Below are positions 19,316-37,036 of a stretch of DNA of 38,675 nucleotides, piece by piece. The stretch's first letter is position 1, and every line of letters starts with the position of its first letter. Below the pieces are notes generated by a model. That model made no database searches, was not told the DNA's origin, and worked only from the letters and a program-made list of their open reading frames with translations. The DNA comes from a virus (Duplodnaviria > Heunggongvirae > Uroviricota > Caudoviricetes), in the IMG/VR virus record IMGVR_UViG_2563366911_000004. One strand, given 5' to 3'. The position numbers and the translations under genes are program-made.

Positions 19316-19544
19316 GCAAAAAAGCTCCCGAAGGAGCCTTCATTTTCACTTTTTTAAATCCAACGACAGACGGCTGGCATTTAAGTATTGTGAAATATTA
19401 TCAAATGTAATCATCATTGATTTACAAAAGATACATTTTGCCCCGAAAGGATTCATGTCAGAAACATCAAAAGATGATGTTCTATACTGGGAACCATGAC
19501 AACACGGGCATCTAAAGTGAATATGGTTTGTAATATTGTCTACC

Positions 19545-19757
19545 TCAAAGCGCCACTACATGAACAGCGGCAGGACCTTTAGGTCCGTTCTCAATACCAA
19601 ATTCAACTTCCTGATTCTCAGTTAATGTTTTGAAATCGTTGCTCTGAATTGCTGAGAAATGGACAAACACATCTTTGCTGCCATCTTTCGGCGTGATGAA
19701 ACCAAAACCTTTTTCAGGGTTAAACCATTTCACTAAACCAGTCATTTTGTTAGACAT
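19545..19757 (-). CDS. cspI: Cold-shock protein (CspA family), CspI-like
   Basis: 70 aa, [70 protein letters not shown]; RNP1 motif KGFGFI and RNP2 VFVHF. Confidence 0.85.
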
Positions 19758-20118
19758 AATTATTACCTTTTGAAGAAATTAGCCCTTGGGCAGAATGGTC
19801 CGAAAAAAATATCAGAGAGAAAAACCAACAAGGAAATCTCAAGAGGTACAAATAATAAAATTATAACAATGACTGCTTCAGATAAATTTGTAACAAACCA
19901 GAACACCATTAACGCATGATTAACCACCCATAGCAAGGATTACTTTTGTAAAGAAAAACACAGCAATGAAAGAATAGCTTTATTTATTAATAAAACGTGT
20001 CATTCTGATTAAGACCTTTTATCTTACCCTTAAGATTTCAGGAATTTTGACTCATGGAAGAGTCCTTTTTATTTAAATTTTACATTCAGCGATGTAAATG
20101 TTCCGATTTAATATTACC

Positions 20119-22146: not shown

Positions 22147-22427
22147 GAGATTGTGGTGCTTTTTGTGGGAGTCATCCACTTACGCACTTTGTTTTGCCAT
22201 GCCAGCAGTTAGCTTCTGCTGTAAAACTATTCATGCAGCAAACCTGCACTTCACCACAATGGTTAGCATACTTTTCCTGATTAAGATTTTGCCAAATATG
22301 CTGGCCATTGTTTCATGTATTGGACCTCCTTAAATTTTATTAAAGAAATCCAATATTCACTACTCTGTCCGTATCTCTACTCAGGCATCAGCCTTCTTCG
22401 TTATCGTATACAGACGAGCGATGAATT

Positions 22428-22643
22428 TTAATCAGTAATGATGACATTTGCTGCTGCAGGACCTTTAGCACCACTCTCTATAGAGAAGGTAACCTTTTGA
22501 CCTTCAAATAAGGTTCGATAATTATCATTCTGAATCGCAGAAAAATGCACAAACACATCTTTACTACCATCAACAGGAGAAATAAAGCCGAAACCTTTAT
22601 CAGCGTTAAACCATTTTACTAAACCAGTCATTTTATTTGACAT
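22428..22643 (-). CDS. cspB: Cold-shock protein, CspB-like
   Basis: 71 aa, [71 protein letters not shown]. Confidence 0.85.
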
Positions 22644-22943
22644 TCTACATTCCTTAACTTGAGCCTTTCGGCATAAATGGTTTGCATAACAGAAACGACT
22701 TCGTACTTAATTGGAGAGACTCAAAGAAGGAATAAGTGAATAACACCTGAAATGAGAACTGCTTTAGTAAACTACTTCGTATATCGTCTGTTCTTCAAAC
22801 CGACGCAATCATTAACGCATAGTTGAACATATGAAGCAATGTTTATTTTAGACATCCAGCCATCTTCAACCCCATCAAAAAACTATAGCTTTCTTCAGGA
22901 ACGTGTGTATAGTGCGCCAAGTTATCAGTATTAAGGAATTTTT

Positions 22944-26207: not shown

Positions 26208-26363
26208 TTACTCCTCAGGTTCGTAAGCTGTGAAGACAGCGACCTCCGTCTGGCCGGTTCGGATTCGTACCTCGCAGAGGTCTTTCCTCGTTACCAGTGC
26301 CGTCACTATGACGGTTAAACAGATGACGATCAGGGCGATTAACATCGCCTTTTGCTGCTTCAT
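26208..26363 (-). CDS. hokD: Hok-family type I toxin (HokD/RelF-like), 51 aa
   Basis: MKQQKAMLIALIVICLTVIVTALVTRKDLCEVRIRTGQTEVAVFTAYEPEE from ATG 26363; the ORF-track entry extends upstream in frame to 26420. Confidence 0.85.
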   Translation of the reverse strand: MKQQKAMLIALIVICLTVIVTALVTRKDLCEVRIRTGQTEVAVFTAYEPEE

Positions 26364-27164
26364 AGCCTGCTTCTCCTTGCCTTTCGGCACGTAAGAGGCT
26401 AACCTACATATGTCTAGCATGAAATTGGCCTCAGATTAATGTTAAGCGTCTTGCAGGACGCGTAATGTTAACTGGGGCTTTTCTCTATCTGCCGTTGGTG
26501 TTCATGCCTGAGGCAGATAGCCTCAAGCACCCGCAGCAATTCTACTTAACTCCCGTCACCTCGCCAATATAAAATCAATCAGAAAGGCGATCCGTAAGAA
26601 CAACAGCAAGACAATAAATTGCCATTACAGCCGCAATAGCTAGCGCACATTTGAGAACCAGCACGACAACCTCCTGTATTGGACGTACACCAGTTCTGAT
26701 AAATATGAGGCTGTCTCATCATTGATTCAATATAACTATTGGGTATAGTTTCTGTGATTTTGTTTTGTAGAAATGGAACACAACAACCAGTTACCACCAG
26801 CACTTCTTTAAATACGCCAAGTCCGACGCAAGCTAACCTTCTAGTCCGCTTTGAGTGAGAAGCAGACATTTACTTAACCGGATAGCAAGAGACTTCATAC
26901 TACAGCTCATACATCATGGTTGATCCCGAAGTTTTCAGCAATGGAAATTGCCCACATGATCGTACCGTAACCACATTAGAAGCAGGTTCACTTTGTGAAT
27001 TTTGATTGTGTCACCCTATCAGTTTTGAATTTTTATAAAAAATATTCGCAAATTTGTGAATTATGAGAGGCATACGAGCATGGACAACCAATGTTACTTT
27101 CATACACAATGAAGCAACATGATAAAAATACACTGACTTTAGTAAGTAAATTTAGGAGATTGCG

Positions 27165-28499
27165 ATGTTTAGCTTAATCATGGCCGGAGAACCGGACGTT
27201 TTTGACCGCTGGCCGTGTATGGACCCTGAGCTTAAAGAAGGCAAGGAAAGCTTCTCGATGTCCCGCATGCTGGAAGGCACCCCAAGCAATATTTACAGAA
27301 AATTAACACCAATAAGACCCGATACCTTAAGAGTACTCGCCAAGCTACCGGTGTTGTTCATGACCGAAATTTATACAAAAGATGATGAATATGATACAAA
27401 CAAGTACATCAGGATCAGGCTTGGGGAAATAAGAAATTTACGTAAAGATGGTGGCGATATTTTATTTTCTTTCAAGATTAATCATGATTTTGGAGAAATA
27501 ACGAATCCCCAAACGACATTATATAAAGAAACCCTAGGACTAGGATCTTTCGGGTTAAGTCGTACACATTGGGCAGTAAAAAATAAGGATTTGAATATTG
27601 TTCTGGAATTACTTGGTTTAAACAAAAAAAATAGCCATCTGAAAGGTACAATCAAATTAAAAAAACAAACATACCCAGTAGTCGAGAATATTATAGATTA
27701 TCTTAATTTCATTAAGAAAAACTTTCGTGATGGTCTCATTACCTTCTATCGTGGACACTCTAAAAGCTCATATGAGCTTGTCCCCTCTCTTTACAGAAAA
27801 AATCAAAACGGGACGTACAGGCATCTTGCTTCAGAATCTGATTTAGTACGTGAAATACTCAGCGCAAGACCAAATGAATTTAAGGAGGATAAATTTACGA
27901 TTGATAAACTTGTCCGCATGCAGCATTATGGCTTGCCTACAAGACTCTTAGACATTACATCTAACCCACTGATAGCATTATATTTTGCTTGCTGTTCGAA
28001 CCCCGATGAAAACGGACAGGTGATTGCGTTTTCAACAAACAGAAAGAAAATTAAATATTTCGACTCAGACACAGTGAGCTGTATAGCAAACTTATCACTT
28101 TTATCTTACGAAGAGTTGGAAAAATTGTCTTCCATTGATGCCAGAAAAGGTAGTATGGAGTTACCTGAACTCACTGATAAACTTGCAGACCTTATACAGA
28201 ATGAAAAATCATATTTCAGAAACAGAATAATCCCTGATGACTTAAAGAAAGTTGTTTTCCTTAAGGCAAAAATAAATAATGAACGCATACAATCTCAGGC
28301 AGGAGCTTTTCTTCTGTTCGGACTTGATCCCATTTTACCGGAAACAGATGCTGAGTTTCCTCTTAACAGAGTGGAGATAGCGAACAAAAATAAAATTCTG
28401 GAAGAGCTGGCACAGCTTAATATATCCGAAAGCACTGTATATCCCAGCATGGAGAAAACGGCAGCAGAAATTACAAAAAAGTTTTTATCGGTATCATAA
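27165..28499 (+). CDS. FRG-domain protein (444 aa), AT-rich accessory gene; function unknown, candidate defence/exclusion gene
   Basis: Strong SD (TAGGAGA) 7 nt before ATG. Central region carries the FRG-domain signature as I recall it: ...LITFYRGHSKSSYELVPSLYRKN...LVRMQHYGLPTRLLDITSNPLIALYFAC.... Composition markedly more AT-rich than neighbouring phage genes. Confidence 0.75.
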   Translation: MFSLIMAGEPDVFDRWPCMDPELKEGKESFSMSRMLEGTPSNIYRKLTPIRPDTLRVLAKLPVLFMTEIYTKDDEYDTNKYIRIRLGEIRNLRKDGGDILFSFKINHDFGEITNPQTTLYKETLGLGSFGLSRTHWAVKNKDLNIVLELLGLNKKNSHLKGTIKLKKQTYPVVENIIDYLNFIKKNFRDGLITFYRGHSKSSYELVPSLYRKNQNGTYRHLASESDLVREILSARPNEFKEDKFTIDKLVRMQHYGLPTRLLDITSNPLIALYFACCSNPDENGQVIAFSTNRKKIKYFDSDTVSCIANLSLLSYEELEKLSSIDARKGSMELPELTDKLADLIQNEKSYFRNRIIPDDLKKVVFLKAKINNERIQSQAGAFLLFGLDPILPETDAEFPLNRVEIANKNKILEELAQLNISESTVYPSMEKTAAEITKKFLSVS

Positions 28500-28528
28500 A
28501 GGGATAAACTAAAGGAAACGAAAACTAA

Positions 28529-28537
28529 GACTGCGCA
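28529..28537. repeat. IS10 target-site duplication, left copy (GACTGCGCA)
   Basis: Identical 9-mer directly flanks both IS10 termini. Confidence 0.85.
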
Positions 28538-29866
28538 CTGAGAGATCCCCTCATAATTTCCCCAAAACGTAACCATGTGTGAATAGATTTTGAGTAAGCA
28601 GGGTTGCAGCCACGAGTGAGTCTTCCCTTGTTATTGTGTAGCCAGAATGCCGCAAAACTTCCATGCCTAAGCGAACTGTTGAGAGTACGTTTCGATTTCT
28701 GACTGTGTTAGCCTGGAAGTGCTTGTCCCAACCTTGTTTCTGAGCATGAACGCCCGCAAGCCAACATGTTAGTTGAAGCATCAGGGCGATTAGCAGCATG
28801 ATATCAAAACGCTCTGAGCTGCTCGTTCGGCTATGGCGTAGGCCTAGTCCGTAGGCAGGACTTTTCAAGTCTCGGAAGGTTTCTTCAATCTGCATTCGCT
28901 TCGAATAGATATTAACAAGTTGTTTGGGTGTTCGAATTTCAACAGGTAAGTTAGTTGCTAGAATCCATGGCTCCTTTGCCGACGCTGAGTAGATTTTAGG
29001 TGACGGGTGGTGACAATGAGTCCGTGTCGAGCGCTGATTTTTTCGGCCTTTAGAGCGAGATTTATACAATAGAATTTGGCATGAGATTGGATTGCTTTTA
29101 GTCAGCCTCTTATAGCCTAAAGTCTTTGAGTGACTAGATGACATATCATGTAAGTTGCTGATAGGTTTCCAGTTTTCCGCTCCTAGGTCTGCATATTGTA
29201 CTTTTCCTCTTACTCGACTTAACCAGTACCAACCCAGCTTCTCAACGGATTTATACCATGGCACTTTAAAGCCAGCATCACTGACAATGAGCGGTGTGGT
29301 GTTACTCGGTAGAATGCTCGCAAGGTCGGCTAGAAATTGGTCATGAGCTTTCTTTGAACATTGCTCTGAAAGCGGGAACGCTTTCTCATAAAGAGTAACA
29401 GAACGACCGTGTAGTGCGACTGAAGCTCGCAATACCATAAGTCGTTTTTGCTCACGAATATCAGACCAGTCAACAAGTACAATGGGCATCGTATTGCCCG
29501 AACAGATAAAGCTAGCATGCCAACGGTATACAGCGAGTCGCTCTTTGTGGAGGTGACGATTACCTAACAATCGGTCGATTCGTTTGATGTTATGTTTTGT
29601 TCTCGCTTTGGTTGGCAGGTTACGGCCAAGTTCGGTAAGAGTGAGAGTTTTACAGTCAAGTAATGCGTGGCAAGCCAACGTTAAGCTGTTGAGTCGTTTT
29701 AAGTGTAATTCGGGGCAGAATTGGTAAAGAGAGTCGTGTAAAATATCGAGTTCGCACATCTTGTTGTCTGATTATTGATTTTTCGCGAAACCATTTGATC
29801 ATATGACAAGATGTGTATCCACCTTAACTTAATGATTTTTACCAAAATCATTAGGGGATTCATCAG
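28538..29866 (-). mobile_element. IS10 (IS4 family), complete 1329-bp element
   Basis: Termini CTGAGAGATCCCCTCATAATTTCCCC (inside end, 28538) and CTGATGAATCCCCTAATGATTTTGGTAAAAATCATTAAG (outside end, reverse complement ending 29866); length exactly 1329 bp; encodes the IS10 transposase. Confidence 0.95.
28551..29759 (-). CDS. IS10 transposase (402 aa)
   Basis: MCELDILHDSLYQFCPELHLKRLNSLTLACHALLDCKTLTLTELGRNLPTKARTKHNIKRIDRLLGNRHLHKERLAVYRWHASF... recognised as Tn10/IS10 transposase; start is 107 nt inside the outside end. Confidence 0.95.
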   Translation of the reverse strand: MCELDILHDSLYQFCPELHLKRLNSLTLACHALLDCKTLTLTELGRNLPTKARTKHNIKRIDRLLGNRHLHKERLAVYRWHASFICSGNTMPIVLVDWSDIREQKRLMVLRASVALHGRSVTLYEKAFPLSEQCSKKAHDQFLADLASILPSNTTPLIVSDAGFKVPWYKSVEKLGWYWLSRVRGKVQYADLGAENWKPISNLHDMSSSHSKTLGYKRLTKSNPISCQILLYKSRSKGRKNQRSTRTHCHHPSPKIYSASAKEPWILATNLPVEIRTPKQLVNIYSKRMQIEETFRDLKSPAYGLGLRHSRTSSSERFDIMLLIALMLQLTCWLAGVHAQKQGWDKHFQANTVRNRNVLSTVRLGMEVLRHSGYTITREDSLVAATLLTQNLFTHGYVLGKL

Positions 29867-29875
29867 GACTGCGCA
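29867..29875. repeat. IS10 target-site duplication, right copy (GACTGCGCA)
   Basis: Identical to 28529-28537. Confidence 0.85.
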
Positions 29876-30074
29876 GTCTTCAGGTGGAAGTACTCATCGG
29901 GAACGGTTTCAGGGGCAAAAACTGGAAGCTCCAATGGCCTTGAGCTGCTCCCTATAAATTAACATATCTCAATGTTATCAATGTCTGCTTTTGGCACAAA
30001 GCGGACAACCACGCTAGCTCTACCCTGTGCCACAAAATGTCAATTTGCATCTGAACTAATGCACTTTAATCTCG

Positions 30075-30497
30075 TCACTTCAATAAATACCGGACATCCC
30101 CCTGATAAAACGACAATATGCGCTGCATAACTTCGCTTTTACGACACTCAGTACAAATCATATTATGACGCCTGTCGTAACGACGTATTTCTCCGTCAGG
30201 TAATGACCAGATAAGGTCCGGATCAACCGCAGATGGTTCCTTCAGCTTTACCCTTGAGAGCTTTTTACGGGCATTTTGCCAGTCCTTACGCGCCTGTTCA
30301 GACGGGAATAACCCGTAACCAGAGTTGTATACATCGCCGCTGGCAACCAGCTCTCTTGCGAGAACGCTCATCAGATATCTTGTCGCACCTGTCTTGACTT
30401 CCAGTTGCCGTAACGTCTCACGCCCACTCCGGCGTACGAGTTCAACAACCTGCCCTTTAATTTTTTCCCGCTCTTCTTGTGTAAAAACTTTTGCCAC
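30075..30497 (-). CDS. Hypothetical protein of the replication module (lambda P/ren position), possible HTH
   Basis: 140 aa ORF immediately downstream of the O-like gene; no recognisable helicase-loader motifs. Confidence 0.5.
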   Translation of the reverse strand: MAKVFTQEEREKIKGQVVELVRRSGRETLRQLEVKTGATRYLMSVLARELVASGDVYNSGYGLFPSEQARKDWQNARKKLSRVKLKEPSAVDPDLIWSLPDGEIRRYDRRHNMICTECRKSEVMQRILSFYQGDVRYLLK

Positions 30498-33867: not shown

Positions 33868-33925
33868 TTTTCTGGTGACGTTTGGCGGTATCAGTTTTAC
33901 TCCGTGACTGCTCTGCCGCCGTTTT
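33868..33925 (+). ncRNA. dicF: DicF small regulatory RNA
   Basis: TTTCTGGTGACGTTTGGCGGTATCAGTTTTACTCCGTGACTGCTCTGCCGCC followed by GTTTTT; matches my recollection of the 53-nt DicF RNA and lies in the expected position upstream of dicB. Confidence 0.6.
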
Positions 33926-34564: not shown

Positions 34565-37036
34565 ATGAGTAAAGTCTTTATTTGCGCCGCCATTCCGGAC
34601 GAACAGGCAATAAAGGAAGAAGGTGCCGTCGCTGTAGCCACTGCCATTGAAGCCGGTGATGAACGTCGCGCCCGCGCAAAATTTCACTGGCAATTCCTGG
34701 AACATTATCCGGCTGCTCAGGACTGCGCTTATAAATTTCTTGTTTGCGAGGATAAACCCGGTATACCCCGCCCTGCCCTCGATTCCTGGGATGCTGAATA
34801 TATGCAGGAAAACCGCTGGGATGAGGCGTCTGCTTCCTTTGTCCCGGTCGAGACTGAATCCGATCCGATGAACGTCACTTTTGACAACCTAGCCCCTGAA
34901 GTACAGAACGCTGTCATGGTTAAGTTCGACACATGTGAAAACATCACTGTTGATATGGTGATTAGCGCACAGGAATTGTTGCAGGAAGACATGGCAACAT
35001 TCGACGGCCATATCGTTGAAGCGTTGATGAAAATGCCAGAAGTTAACGCTATGTATCCGGAGCTTAAGCTGCATGCCATCGGGTGGGTTAAGCATAAATG
35101 TAAGCCTGGTGCCAAATGGCCCGAAATTCAGGCAGAGATGCGCATCTGGAAAAAACGTCGCGAAGGTGAACGCAAGGAAGCCGGAAAATACACGTCTGTT
35201 GTTGATCTCGCCCGCGCCAGAGCCAATCAACAGCACACTGAAAATTCAACAGGAAAAATCAACCCGGTCATTGCTGCCATTCATCGCGAATACAAGCAGA
35301 CATGGAAAACACTGGATGACGAACTGGCCTACGCTCTCTGGCCTGGTGATGTGGATGCCGGAAACATTGACGGCAGCATCCATCGCTGGGCAAAAAATGA
35401 AGTTATCGACAACGACCGCGAAGACTGGAAGCGTATCTCGGCATCAATGCGCAAACAGCCTGATGCCCTTCGCTACGACCGCCAGACTATTTTTGGCCTT
35501 GTCCGTGAACGTCCGATCGACATTCACAAAGACCCTGTGGCACTGAACAAATACATTACTGAATACCTGACTACAAAGGGCGTGTTTGAAGATGAAGGAA
35601 CAAATCAGAGCGCAACTGATACTCTCTCGTCGCCAGTACCAGAAACTGATGCAGTGGAAACGGCAATTCCAGACAACGAAAAAACCGAATGCAAAGTGGA
35701 AGTCGAACCATCTGTAGAACGTGAGGGGCCGTTCTACTTCCTCTTCACCGACAAGGATGGCGAAAAATACGGTCGCGCAAATAAACTTTCTGGTCTGGAT
35801 AAGGCGCTGTCTGCTGGGGCTACTGAAATCACGAAAGAAGAATATTTCGCCCGCAAAAACGGTACATACTCAGGTTCACAACAAAATACTGGTGCATCTG
35901 ACACGACCGCACAACCAGGGTCAGTAAAAGTTACCGCTGACGAAGTAAACAAAATTATGCAGGCAGCCAATATCAGCCAGCCTGACGCCGATGAACTGCT
36001 TGCAGTATCACGTGGTGAATTTGTTGAAGGGATTAGCGACCCGAATGATCCGAAATGGATTAAGGGGATCCAGACCCGCGATTCTGTGAACCAGAACCAG
36101 CAAGAAACGGAACAGAACGACCAGAAAGCGGAACAAAACAGCCCAAATACGCAACAAAACGAGCCAGAAACGAAACAACCTGAACCAGTAGTGCAACAGG
36201 AACCGGAAAAGATCTGCACCGCCTGCGGTCAGAGCGGTGGCGGCAACTGCCCTGATTGTGGTGCGGTGATGGGTGACGCAACATACCAGGAAATATTCGA
36301 TGGAGAGAATCAGCCTGAAGTTCAGGAAAATGATCCGGAGGAAATGGAAGGCACTGCGCATCAGCACAAGGAGAACACTGGCGGCAATCAGCATCATGCC
36401 AGCGATAGTGAAACTGGCGAGGCGTCAGATCCCTTAATTAAGGCAAACGGTCATCATAATCTCACATCCACCAGCAGAGCGGGGATTCATCTGATGATCG
36501 ACCTTGAAACCATGGGAAAAAATCCCGATGCCCCGATTATCTCAATAGGTGCAATATTTTTCGATCCGCAAACCGGAGATATGGGACCGGAATTTAGTAA
36601 GACTATCGATCTGGAAACTGCTGGCGGAGTCATTGATCGGGACACCATTAAATGGTGGCTTAAACAATCACGCGAAGCGCAATCTGCCATTATGACCGAT
36701 GAAATCCCGTTAGATGATGCACTGTTACAATTGCGGGAATTTATCGACGAAAACTCCGGTGAATTTTTTGTTCATGTCTGGGGAAATGGAGCCAACTTCG
36801 ACAACACGATTTTGCGCCGTTCATACGAACGGCAGGGGATCCCCTGCCCGTGGCGTTACTACAACGATCGCGATGTACGCACAATCGTTGAGCTGGGGAA
36901 AGCCATAGACTTCGATGCCAGAACGGCTATTCCATTCGAAGGTGAGCGCCATAATGCACTTGATGACGCCCGTTACCAGGCAAAATACGTTTCAGCTATC
37001 TGGCAAAAACTGATCCCGAGTCAGGCTGATTCTTAA
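34565..37036 (+). CDS. Large multidomain early protein (823 aa; YdfE-like by synteny) with central low-complexity Q/E/N-rich linker, a CxxC-x7-CxxC zinc ribbon and a C-terminal DnaQ-like (DEDDh) 3'-5' exonuclease domain
   Basis: C-terminal ~190 aa: ...HLMIDLETMGKNPDAPIISIGAIFFD...FFVHVWGNGANFDNTIL...RHNALDDARYQAKY... (Exo I DxE, Exo II NxxxFD, Exo III H-x4-D pattern). Zinc ribbon CTACGQSGGGNCPDCG. Located between ydfD and xis/int. Confidence 0.75.
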   Translation: MSKVFICAAIPDEQAIKEEGAVAVATAIEAGDERRARAKFHWQFLEHYPAAQDCAYKFLVCEDKPGIPRPALDSWDAEYMQENRWDEASASFVPVETESDPMNVTFDNLAPEVQNAVMVKFDTCENITVDMVISAQELLQEDMATFDGHIVEALMKMPEVNAMYPELKLHAIGWVKHKCKPGAKWPEIQAEMRIWKKRREGERKEAGKYTSVVDLARARANQQHTENSTGKINPVIAAIHREYKQTWKTLDDELAYALWPGDVDAGNIDGSIHRWAKNEVIDNDREDWKRISASMRKQPDALRYDRQTIFGLVRERPIDIHKDPVALNKYITEYLTTKGVFEDEGTNQSATDTLSSPVPETDAVETAIPDNEKTECKVEVEPSVEREGPFYFLFTDKDGEKYGRANKLSGLDKALSAGATEITKEEYFARKNGTYSGSQQNTGASDTTAQPGSVKVTADEVNKIMQAANISQPDADELLAVSRGEFVEGISDPNDPKWIKGIQTRDSVNQNQQETEQNDQKAEQNSPNTQQNEPETKQPEPVVQQEPEKICTACGQSGGGNCPDCGAVMGDATYQEIFDGENQPEVQENDPEEMEGTAHQHKENTGGNQHHASDSETGEASDPLIKANGHHNLTSTSRAGIHLMIDLETMGKNPDAPIISIGAIFFDPQTGDMGPEFSKTIDLETAGGVIDRDTIKWWLKQSREAQSAIMTDEIPLDDALLQLREFIDENSGEFFVHVWGNGANFDNTILRRSYERQGIPCPWRYYNDRDVRTIVELGKAIDFDARTAIPFEGERHNALDDARYQAKYVSAIWQKLIPSQADS

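Follow-up and report, generated by a model that had tools for sequence, protein, structure and literature searches.

We identified a complete insertion sequence, IS10, in the viral DNA analysed here (the whole stretch of 38,675 nucleotides, referred to as the window). A single ISVsa5-type IS10 has almost certainly moved by cut-and-paste, and very recently, into an intergenic spacer of a Qin-like prophage. IS10 is among the best-studied bacterial insertion sequences, and the finding is of a kind already known: an ordinary, routine event that left a solitary IS10 flanked by a textbook 9-bp target duplication.

A complete IS10 with both ends and an intact transposase

The element is a full-length IS10 of 1329 bp with canonical inside and outside ends (Table 1). 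The left end reads CTGAGAGATCCCCTCATAA (inside end) and the right end is the reverse complement of CTGATGAATCCCCTAATGA (outside end). The transposase gene encodes 402 amino acids without an internal stop, and the encoded protein matches the Pfam family DDE_Tnp_1 (E=1.5e-24) and keeps the DDE triad (D97/D161/E292). The initial annotation had described a complete IS10 with both ends and an intact transposase. Alignment to an IS10 reference, which it had proposed as a check, was free of gaps over 1329 columns against the copies in R100, with identical ends. The promoters pIN and pOUT of IS10 are experimentally established; a simple promoter scan flagged neither of them in the element and is thus uninformative for IS10 promoters, so the Rfam assignment of RNA-OUT and the literature were used instead. 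RNA-OUT scored 98.8 bits against the Rfam model, for which the gathering score is 41 (E=1.2e-19). RNA-OUT normally stops within IS10 at nt 47 (PMC5006887), which agrees with the coordinates here. The roles of the two Dam sites (GATC), in the pIN -10 region and in the inside end, follow the same study (PMC5006887) and established knowledge.

All six testable features of an IS10 were found, namely the length and ends, the 402-aa DDE reading frame, the 9-bp duplication, RNA-OUT, the Dam sites and the target consensus. Judged by these features, the copy keeps everything needed for further moves: both ends, a DDE transposase, pIN/RNA-OUT and the Dam sites. We saw nothing contradictory to an IS10 identity. 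A Tn10 composite or a remnant of one was considered and rejected: each kind of IS10 end is present just once in the 38.7-kb window, and the two copies of the duplication border this one IS directly.

Table 1. Coordinates of the IS10 insertion, its target site and the neighbouring genes in the window
Feature	Position	Strand	Basis or remark
FRG-domain gene, 444 aa, upstream neighbour	27165..28499	+	Pfam FRG E=2.8e-22; PADLOC PDC-S15 E=6.7e-99; same ORF in RefSeq at empty sites
Left part of the split 16-bp palindrome (AAGACTGCGCA)	28527..28537		Inverted repeat and reconstruction; palindrome intact in empty sites
Left copy of the target-site duplication, GACTGCGCA	28529..28537		Sequence
IS10 (ISVsa5 isoform)	28538..29866	-	Inside end at 28538, outside end at 29866
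Inside-end terminal inverted repeat, CTGAGAGATCCCCTCATAATTTC	28538..28560	+	Exact match to both Tn10 inside ends in R100
Dam site GATC in the IS10 inside end	28544-28547		Position in sequence
IS10 transposase gene, 402 aa, intact	28551..29759	-	ORF 29759..28551, no internal stop
RNA-OUT antisense RNA gene (IS10 nt 115 to 46), towards the outside end and opposite the transposase start	29752..29821	+	Rfam RF00240
Dam site GATC overlapping the pIN -10 region (IS10 nt 67-70)	29797..29800		Position in sequence
Outside-end terminal inverted repeat, CTGATGAATCCCCTAATGATTTT (minus-strand letters)	29844..29866	-	Exact match to both Tn10 outside ends in R100
Right copy of the target-site duplication, GACTGCGCA	29867..29875		Sequence
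Right part of the split palindrome (TGCGCAGTCTT)	29870..29880		Inverted repeat and reconstruction
DUF977 gene, downstream neighbour, convergent with FRG	30075..30497	-	Pfam DUF977 E=1.5e-28; RefSeq at empty loci

The element is a mosaic of the two IS10 copies of Tn10

Alignment with the two IS10 copies of Tn10 in R100 (1329 columns, no gaps) revealed 8 differences from IS10R and 9 from IS10L; columns 1-425 of the element are IS10R-like and columns from 903 on are IS10L-like. IS10-Right (IS4 family; NC_002134 43950-45278) is alike in its length of 1329 bp, both end sequences, the 402-aa DDE transposase and the 9-bp duplication. It is identical to the present copy over nt 1-202, which span the outside end, pIN, RNA-OUT/pOUT, the transposase start and a Dam site. 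One of the 8 substitutions is silent and found only in the present copy (nt 203), and the other seven, at nt 903-1300, match IS10L. Relative to the IS10-Right protein, the present copy has four changes (V266I, L381S, A389T and A398V). IS10-Right belongs to the Tn10 composite, whereas the present copy is solitary. The transposase of IS10-Left (NC_002134 36132-37460) is identical in amino acid sequence to the one here, as is the 3' third of the element in its nucleotides; six of the 9 substitutions separating the two fall within nt 1-107 (outside end and pIN region), and there the present copy has the IS10R bases.

No difference was found from the element labelled ISVsa5 by RefSeq/PGAP, with 100% nucleotide identity over 1329 bp, an equivalence that rests on RefSeq labels. 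Copies that are 100% identical are present on many E. coli plasmids and chromosomes, annotated as 'IS4-like element ISVsa5 family transposase'. Of 5426 complete E. coli genomes, 1968 (about a third) contain IS10 matches, and a single genome may have up to 45 or more copies. These comparisons identify the element as the ISVsa5 isoform, which is widespread and mosaic between IS10R and IS10L of Tn10. IS10L of Tn10 has classically been described as poorly active, and the transposase here has the four IS10L-type residues. Some genomes contain dozens of copies of this exact isoform, an argument in favour of activity, and we predict it to be active on this ground.

The insertion lies between convergent genes of a Qin-like prophage

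On gene content and order, the host element is a Qin-like lambdoid prophage located beside rspB in the E. coli chromosome, with the insertion site in the early-right operon. The order is dicA / dicC-ydaT-rep-DUF977 / [IS10] / FRG / hokD-rem-ydfU-ydfT(Q) / lysis genes. The same gene order next to rspB is seen in Qin and its lambdoid relatives in E. coli, phage Tritos of LF82 (OV696610) being an example. Common to the present prophage and its Qin-like relatives are integrase, exonuclease, dicB, DicF, dicA/dicC, ydaT, a replication gene, DUF977, FRG, hokD/sok, ydfU, a Q-type antiterminator and lysis genes; none of these relatives has IS10 at the site, and the present prophage has one. The insertion falls in a 237-bp spacer between two convergent genes and breaks no coding sequence. 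DUF977 is the final gene of the dicC-ydaT-replication block ahead of the insertion site. The FRG gene on the other side, a prophage moron, is a candidate for anti-phage defence.

Target duplication within a 16-bp palindrome

Exact copies of GACTGCGCA abut both IS termini, as the initial annotation had it. The 9-mer occurs nowhere else in the window, is not extendable on either side and is single-copy in empty sites; a 9/9 match would arise by chance with a probability of about 4e-6. Deleting the IS together with one repeat copy yields AAGACTGCGCAGTCTT, a perfect 16-bp palindrome. That such a removal would restore a perfect palindrome had been predicted, and the same sequence is found in real empty sites. 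The right junction, when 29867-29869 are included, retains 14 of the 16 palindrome bases (GACTGCGCAGTCTT). The insertion had been placed in the palindrome centre, and it is indeed near it; the duplicated 9-mer corresponds to palindrome positions 3-11, so that its centre (28533) lies 1.5 bp off the palindrome axis (28534/28535) and is not exactly central. Likewise, the palindrome does sit just past the FRG stop, at a distance of 27 nt and not the 30 nt given before. Counted from the last base of the stop codon (28499), the duplication begins after 29 nt and the IS after 38 nt. In the window without the IS, three perfect palindromes of at least 16 bp are present against 0.5 expected from shuffles (maximum 3), making such a sequence uncommon and not unique.

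In the cut-and-paste scenario, the transposase would have made 9-bp staggered cuts at GACTGCGCA, and gap repair would then have duplicated this 9-mer, which happens to sit within the 16-bp palindrome.

Empty sites in close relatives indicate a very recent insertion

A comparison of genomes, answering the earlier proposal to look for the empty site in related strains, showed that 15 complete E. coli genomes contain the reconstructed IS-free sequence, with 463 bp matching at 100% identity. The prophage of SCU-152 is 99.9% identical over ~20 kb, the sole structural difference being the IS10 insertion; the BLAST summary, from which the SCU-152 figures derive, gives two pieces that cover 94% of the 21.7-kb query, and the missing 6% is the IS. 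Exact mismatch distances come from the comparison with the empty site of strain 2014C-4587, in which the left flank is identical for 1607 bp and the right flank for 2166 bp, with the first mismatches at 1608 and 2167. The occupied left junction was found in none of the 5426 complete E. coli genomes, and the occupied junction had no match in GTDB species representatives or JGI metagenome contigs. None of the 41 E. coli genomes with the FRG cassette has IS10 at the site.

Because near-identical relatives have the site empty and the occupied junction is in no collection searched, the insertion is, on these comparisons, real and evolutionarily very recent. The initial annotation had called it recent, a view borne out by the long identical flanks, by the identity of the element to copies on other replicons and by the junction search.

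The palindrome is at most a weak hairpin

The initial annotation had regarded the palindrome as probably the terminator of the FRG gene. More broadly, the palindrome could be functional and the IS10 insertion could matter by destroying it, a possibility that we consider unlikely. It might serve as a minus-strand early-right terminator (a hairpin followed by AGUUUUCGUUU), as the 3' end of the FRG transcript or as a protein-binding site; the insertion would then alter FRG expression and/or the flow of transcription from the replication genes to Q. The palindrome does lie between convergent genes, where a terminator is expected, and the minus strand continues beyond the hairpin with a T-rich stretch, AGTTTTCGTTT, in which T makes up 5-6 of 8 bases. 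The hairpin is weak, however, with a 6-bp stem, 2 G-C pairs and a folding energy of -3.9 kcal/mol, and is not the stable G+C-rich stem-loop of an intrinsic terminator. In its 44-nt context it folds no better than shuffles (z of 0.14 for the plus strand and -0.52 for the minus strand), and a terminator scan of the empty locus and of the window called it on neither strand. On the FRG (plus) strand the stem is followed by CAGGTGGA (CAGGTGG), which has no T-run. Since the scan calls nothing and the stability is no better than that of shuffles, we do not endorse the terminator reading, and the lack of a U-tract on the FRG strand further weakens it.

The 16-mer is the same in five cassette variants and nearby bases vary; in a cassette class of 89% identity a single base of it differs, turning GCGC into GCAC in what would be the loop and leaving the two arms intact. 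The 3' portion of the FRG cassette is conserved as far as the palindrome, sequence divergence starts directly 3' of it, and the palindrome moves together with FRG into other genomic contexts. These observations come from very few, closely related sequences with a single substitution, which leaves no room for a covariation test. A perfect 16-bp palindrome is also rare, at 0.5 expected per window, but there is no second copy of this one in the window. In 596 Gb of species-representative genomes the 16-mer has 82 exact matches, in unrelated taxa and none of them enterobacterial, compared with ~139 expected by chance. Being at or below chance, it was therefore rejected as a recurrent regulatory motif. 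At most, the palindrome forms a weak hairpin where the FRG cassette ends on its 3' side.

Possible effects on neighbouring genes

We assume that the insertion is neutral. Effects on expression are possible and can be sketched from the arrangement of the locus: polarity on the early-right-operon transcription heading to ydfT, which encodes the Q antiterminator, disappearance of any role that the palindrome had, or transcripts leaving the IS through its ends. An influence of an outward-reading IS10 promoter on neighbouring genes, raised in the initial annotation, is plausible within limits. Outward promoter activity has been described for both IS10 ends, as cited in PMC4574204. RNA-OUT read-through would exit the outside end on the plus strand, antisense to DUF977 and the replication genes, and no co-directional gene lies on this strand for ~2.4 kb beyond that end. 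Transcripts leaving by the inside end would read FRG in antisense and run in the sense direction of hokD, rem, ydfU and ydfT(Q).

In its strongest form, the argument for an effect would hold that the insertion retunes the defence gene and helps to lock the prophage in the chromosome, which we judge to be improbable. The IS would interrupt a short conserved hairpin that borders the candidate defence gene (FRG / PDC-S15) on its 3' side, and would interpose 1.3 kb of polar IS sequence on the way from the replication genes to the gene for the Q antiterminator. FRG would be retuned through the lost 3' element or through antisense transcription from the inside end, and attenuated early-to-late transcription would lock the prophage in the chromosome. 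If true, a discrete step in the domestication of a prophage would have been captured shortly after its occurrence.

A hotspot or an artefact is very unlikely

IS10 favours symmetric targets (NGCTNAGCN; PMC4574204), and within the palindrome two 9-mers that mirror each other would be acceptable (at 28529 and 28532 in IS-less coordinates). The palindrome could accordingly be imagined as an IS10 hotspot whose symmetry draws the transposase into repeated independent insertions, an idea to which we give very little credence. The target fits only 4 of the 6 bases of NGCTNAGCN, the C3/G7 pair included; it fully fits the relaxed consensus NRCNNNGYN (PMC4574204), which 558 sites in the window fit. Once the IS is taken out of the window, 1320 positions match at least 4/6, 155 match 5/6 and 5 are perfect, and no other is occupied. 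The site is therefore one of more than 1300 equally good or better in the window, on which ground the hotspot was rejected. The axis of the duplication is offset from that of the palindrome, so the palindrome symmetry is not the symmetry used by the transposase. The uniformly empty site in the 41 cassette-bearing E. coli genomes also speaks against repeated insertion. Most likely, the palindrome is an ordinary acceptable target and not a hotspot.

That the insertion is a laboratory or assembly artefact, from an IS10 hop in a Tn10-derived cloning host or a repeat misplaced by the assembler, is hardly credible: IS10 does jump into cloned DNA in common laboratory hosts and leaves perfect 9-bp duplications (PMC4574204), and the occupied junction is in no public sequence searched, but mis-assembly would not place an exact 9-bp duplication right at the ends of the IS, the laboratory-host IS10 is identical to J01829 (IS10R; PMC4574204) whereas the present copy departs from R100 IS10R at 8 positions and is a 100% match to the natural plasmid and chromosomal 'ISVsa5', and about a third of complete E. 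coli genomes have IS10 as a native element.

Significance

As a routine transposition, the insertion has little import beyond annotation. It does provide a clean, documented pair of occupied and empty alleles, which could serve as a strain-typing marker. The pair is also a natural experiment for work on the FRG (PDC-S15) candidate defence gene or on the inducibility of the Qin-like prophage; the IS lies 38 nt behind the FRG stop, where early-right transcription would pass on its way to the Q antiterminator.

Structure and recency of the IS10 insertion

Inspection of window positions 28300-30100 revealed an element of 1329 bp in the spacer between the convergent FRG and DUF977 genes, starting at 28538 with CTGAGAGATCCCCTCATAATTTCC and ending at 29866 with CATTAGGGGATTCATCAG, the reverse complement of CTGATGAATCCCCTAATG. 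As the initial annotation had proposed, this is a complete IS10 with both ends and an intact transposase, whose uninterrupted ORF is the only long one within the element. The 9-mer GACTGCGCA abuts each terminus in exact form (28529-28537 and 29867-29875); no further copy was found in the window, and the repeat could not be extended by one base on either side. Removal of the IS and one repeat copy, joining 28527-28537 to 29876-29880, yields AAGACTGCGCAGTCTT, identical to its own reverse complement, confirming both the flanking repeats and the 16-bp palindrome described initially. Counted from the final base of the FRG stop codon, the palindrome starts after 27 nt (not 30 nt) and the IS after 38 nt. 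The window contains a single outside end and a single inside end, and the element is therefore not a Tn10 remnant. A mechanical ORF listing also predicted a 93-aa ORF (28295-28576, minus strand) with its ATG within the final 39 bp of IS10 (the inside end), reading outward over the junction and antisense to the FRG 3' end.

Features of the prophage and of the inserted element (window coordinates)
Feature	Coordinates	Strand	Evidence
FRG gene	27165-28499	+	Pfam FRG; PADLOC candidate defence family PDC-S15, E=6.7e-99
IS10 transposase ORF	29759..28551	-	402 aa, uninterrupted
RNA-OUT	29752-29821	+	Rfam, 98.8 bits vs gathering score 41; IS10 nt 115-46
sok antitoxin RNA (of hokD/sok)	26358-26532	-	Rfam
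DicF sRNA	33870-33921	+	Rfam
cspA-type thermoregulator leaders (two)	19518-19902, 22412-22804	-	Rfam

The empty site was found in related strains. A 463-bp query, consisting of both flanks and one copy of the 9-mer, matched 15 complete E. coli genomes at full length and 100% identity, 13 more at 97-99%, and phage Tritos of LF82 at 98.9%; none of these matches carries an IS at the locus. In the RefSeq annotation, the empty sites are flanked by 'FRG domain-containing protein' and 'DUF977 family protein', and no feature is annotated in between. A 21.7-kb query (window 17000-38675) matched strain SCU-152 in two pieces at 99.9% identity and 94% coverage, the uncovered 6% being the IS and one repeat copy. 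Comparison with strain 2014C-4587 shows no mismatch until 1608 bp leftward and 2167 bp rightward of the insertion point. The occupied left junction was not found in 5426 complete E. coli genomes, 185,579 species-representative genomes or JGI metagenome contigs. At the sequence level, the duplication is perfect, the IS does not differ from copies in circulation, the flanks equal those of empty alleles, and the occupied allele is not shared with any genome searched; jointly, these observations demonstrate that the simple insertion is genuine and very recent, in agreement with the recency proposed at the outset. The finding is correct and well described but is an ordinary IS insertion; the element matches a known isoform at 100% identity, and the host prophage, too, belongs to a known type.

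Identity of the IS10 isoform

Alignment to both Tn10 copies of IS10 in plasmid R100 (NC_002134), the Right (IS10R) and Left (IS10L) copies, was free of gaps across 1329 columns and upheld the initial assignment. The element differs from IS10R at 8 positions and from IS10L at 9, and 15 differences separate the two Tn10 copies. The substitutions are arranged as a mosaic, in which columns 1-425, comprising the outside end, pIN, RNA-OUT and the 5' part of the transposase gene, carry IS10R bases and columns 903-1300 carry IS10L bases, the element being of IS10L type from nt 903 on. A silent change at nt 203 is private to this isoform. Owing to the mosaic, the transposase equals the IS10L-type protein and differs from that of IS10R at four residues (V266I, L381S, A389T and A398V). 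The DDE residues D97, D161 and E292 are in place, and the protein matches Pfam DDE_Tnp_1 (E=1.5e-24). Both Dam sites were found, one in the pIN -10 region and one in the inside end, and the Rfam coordinates of RNA-OUT agree with the published 69-nt RNA ending at nt 47 (PMC5006887). Every testable defining feature of IS10 is present, namely length, ends, 9-bp duplication, DDE transposase, RNA-OUT, Dam sites and target type.

Copies matching the element over all 1329 bp with 100% identity are carried by several E. coli plasmids and chromosomes; RefSeq annotates them as 'IS4-like element ISVsa5 family transposase'. IS10 matches were present in 1968 of the 5426 complete E. coli genomes, 1174 of which carry a near-full copy. 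Since IS10 occupies at least 45 places in some complete genomes, this isoform is, to judge from its distribution, evidently mobile in nature. The IS10L-type transposase is classically called defective, yet the isoform is multicopy in many genomes. Among 50,697 deposited phage records, IS10 was found in a single one, an immunity-region fragment (EF120459.1, Enterobacteria phage CL707), in contrast to its presence in about a third of complete E. coli genomes.

Prophage context and the FRG cassette

The window comprises a nearly complete Qin-type lambdoid prophage whose integrase gene lies at the right end; in SCU-152, this gene adjoins rspB. The early-right unit (minus strand) runs through dicC (Cro-like), ydaT, a replication gene and DUF977 (30497..30075) into the spacer with the insertion site and, past the oppositely oriented FRG gene, continues with hokD/sok, rem, ydfU, ydfT (Q-type antiterminator) and the lysis and structural genes. 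The sok RNA, DicF and the cspA-type leaders are typical Qin-type prophage cargo; no tRNA genes were found in the window.

The FRG cassette is rare: a 238-bp query covering the FRG gene 3' end and the spacer beyond had full-length matches in only 41 of 5426 complete E. coli genomes. Elsewhere the cassette is found beside a tail-fibre assembly gene, which follows FRG in S1-ZIM; in strains 2452 and 165 it precedes an AAA ATPase gene. Given this rarity and these other contexts, the cassette behaves as a mobile moron. A 48-bp block, CCCTATAAATTAACATATCTCAATGTTATCAATGTCTGCTTTTGGCAC (29950-29997), which holds the 9-nt tandem TCAATGTTA/TCAATGTCT, does not vary among the FRG-cassette contexts examined, although the sequence diverges on both sides. 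In strains 2452 and 165, the block occupies a stretch some 40-90 nt ahead of the AAA ATPase gene, a position at which it could be what remains of a promoter or operator.

Target choice and the palindrome

The 9-mer matches the IS10 target consensus NGCTNAGCN at four of the six specified bases, including C3 and G7, and fits the relaxed consensus NRCNNNGYN (both from PMC4574204). The window without the IS contains 1320 positions with at least four of the six bases, of which 155 match five and 5 are perfect; the relaxed consensus fits 558 positions. None of the cassette-bearing E. coli genomes (41/5426) carries IS10 at this site. A hotspot was rejected, more than 1300 positions being equal or better and the cassette-bearing genomes lacking IS10 here; by its sequence, the site is an ordinary acceptable target. 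The insertion had been placed at the centre of the palindrome and is indeed near it, but the 9-mer corresponds to palindrome positions 3-11 with its midpoint 1.5 bp off the axis; judged from this geometry, the transposase's symmetry axis is not that of the palindrome.

The initial annotation regarded the palindrome as probably the terminator of FRG or a regulatory site. As RNA, the 16-mer forms a 6-bp stem with a GCGC loop (-3.9 kcal/mol); neither strand of its 44-nt context beats dinucleotide shuffles in folding (z 0.14 and -0.52), and a terminator scan of the empty locus made no call at the palindrome. The FRG strand 3' of the stem reads CAGGTGG and has no T-run, and the opposite strand reads AGTTTTCGTTT. 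The folding, the scan and the missing FRG-strand T-run speak against a canonical terminator. The 16-mer is unchanged in five cassette variants, and in an 89%-identical cassette class it reads AAGACTGCACAGTCTT, with the would-be loop altered and both arms retained; cassette divergence sets in directly 3' of the palindrome. The invariance, the kept arms and this boundary are hints of a possible weak function, but one substitution in a handful of related sequences does not amount to evidence of covariation. The exact 16-mer had 82 matches in 596 Gb, in unrelated taxa, about or below the ∼139 expected by chance, and a recurrent motif was rejected on this count. The IS-less window has three perfect palindromes of at least 16 bp (0.5 expected from shuffles) and eight of at least 14 bp (2.2 expected). 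Given the weak folding, the silent scan, the few related variants, the lack of recurrence and the other palindromes in the window, the proposed role is possible but unsupported, and we regard it as unlikely.

The other perfect palindromes are AAGCTCATATGAGCTT within the FRG gene (27764-27779) and GGCAGGGGATCCCCTGCC within the exonuclease gene (36831-36848). After the insertion, 14 of the 16 palindrome bases are left at the right junction (GACTGCGCAGTCTT), and on the minus strand the IS now parts the right-junction hairpin from the T-rich tail. One Bacteroidaceae MAG from horse faeces (JAKSLP01) has AAGACTGCGCAGTCTT on nine contigs, which suggests an unrelated dispersed repeat family in that organism; almost all other genomes with the 16-mer have it on a single contig, and the Bacteroidaceae MAG JAZQPA01 on three.

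Possible consequences of the insertion

Because the transposase gene and the early-right operon are read in the same direction, operon transcripts enter the IS at its outside end. Davis, Simons and Kleckner reportedly found in 1985 that transcription reading into IS10 fails to activate the transposase. IS10 insertions are generally polar, and the insertion may for this reason reduce the transcription reaching hokD through ydfT(Q), unless phage antitermination overrides it. RNA-OUT is directed to the plus strand and normally terminates before leaving the IS; transcripts extending further would lie antisense to DUF977 and to the replication genes, and the closest plus-strand gene in this direction, dicA, is ∼2.4 kb off. 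Both IS10 ends have been reported to show outward promoter activity (PMC4574204, with reference to Simons 1983 and Martinez-Garcia 2003). A transcript started at the inside end would be antisense to FRG and sense towards Q. That the insertion re-tunes the candidate defence gene and attenuates the early-to-late switch of the prophage seems to us highly improbable, and such an effect would be of modest significance even if true.
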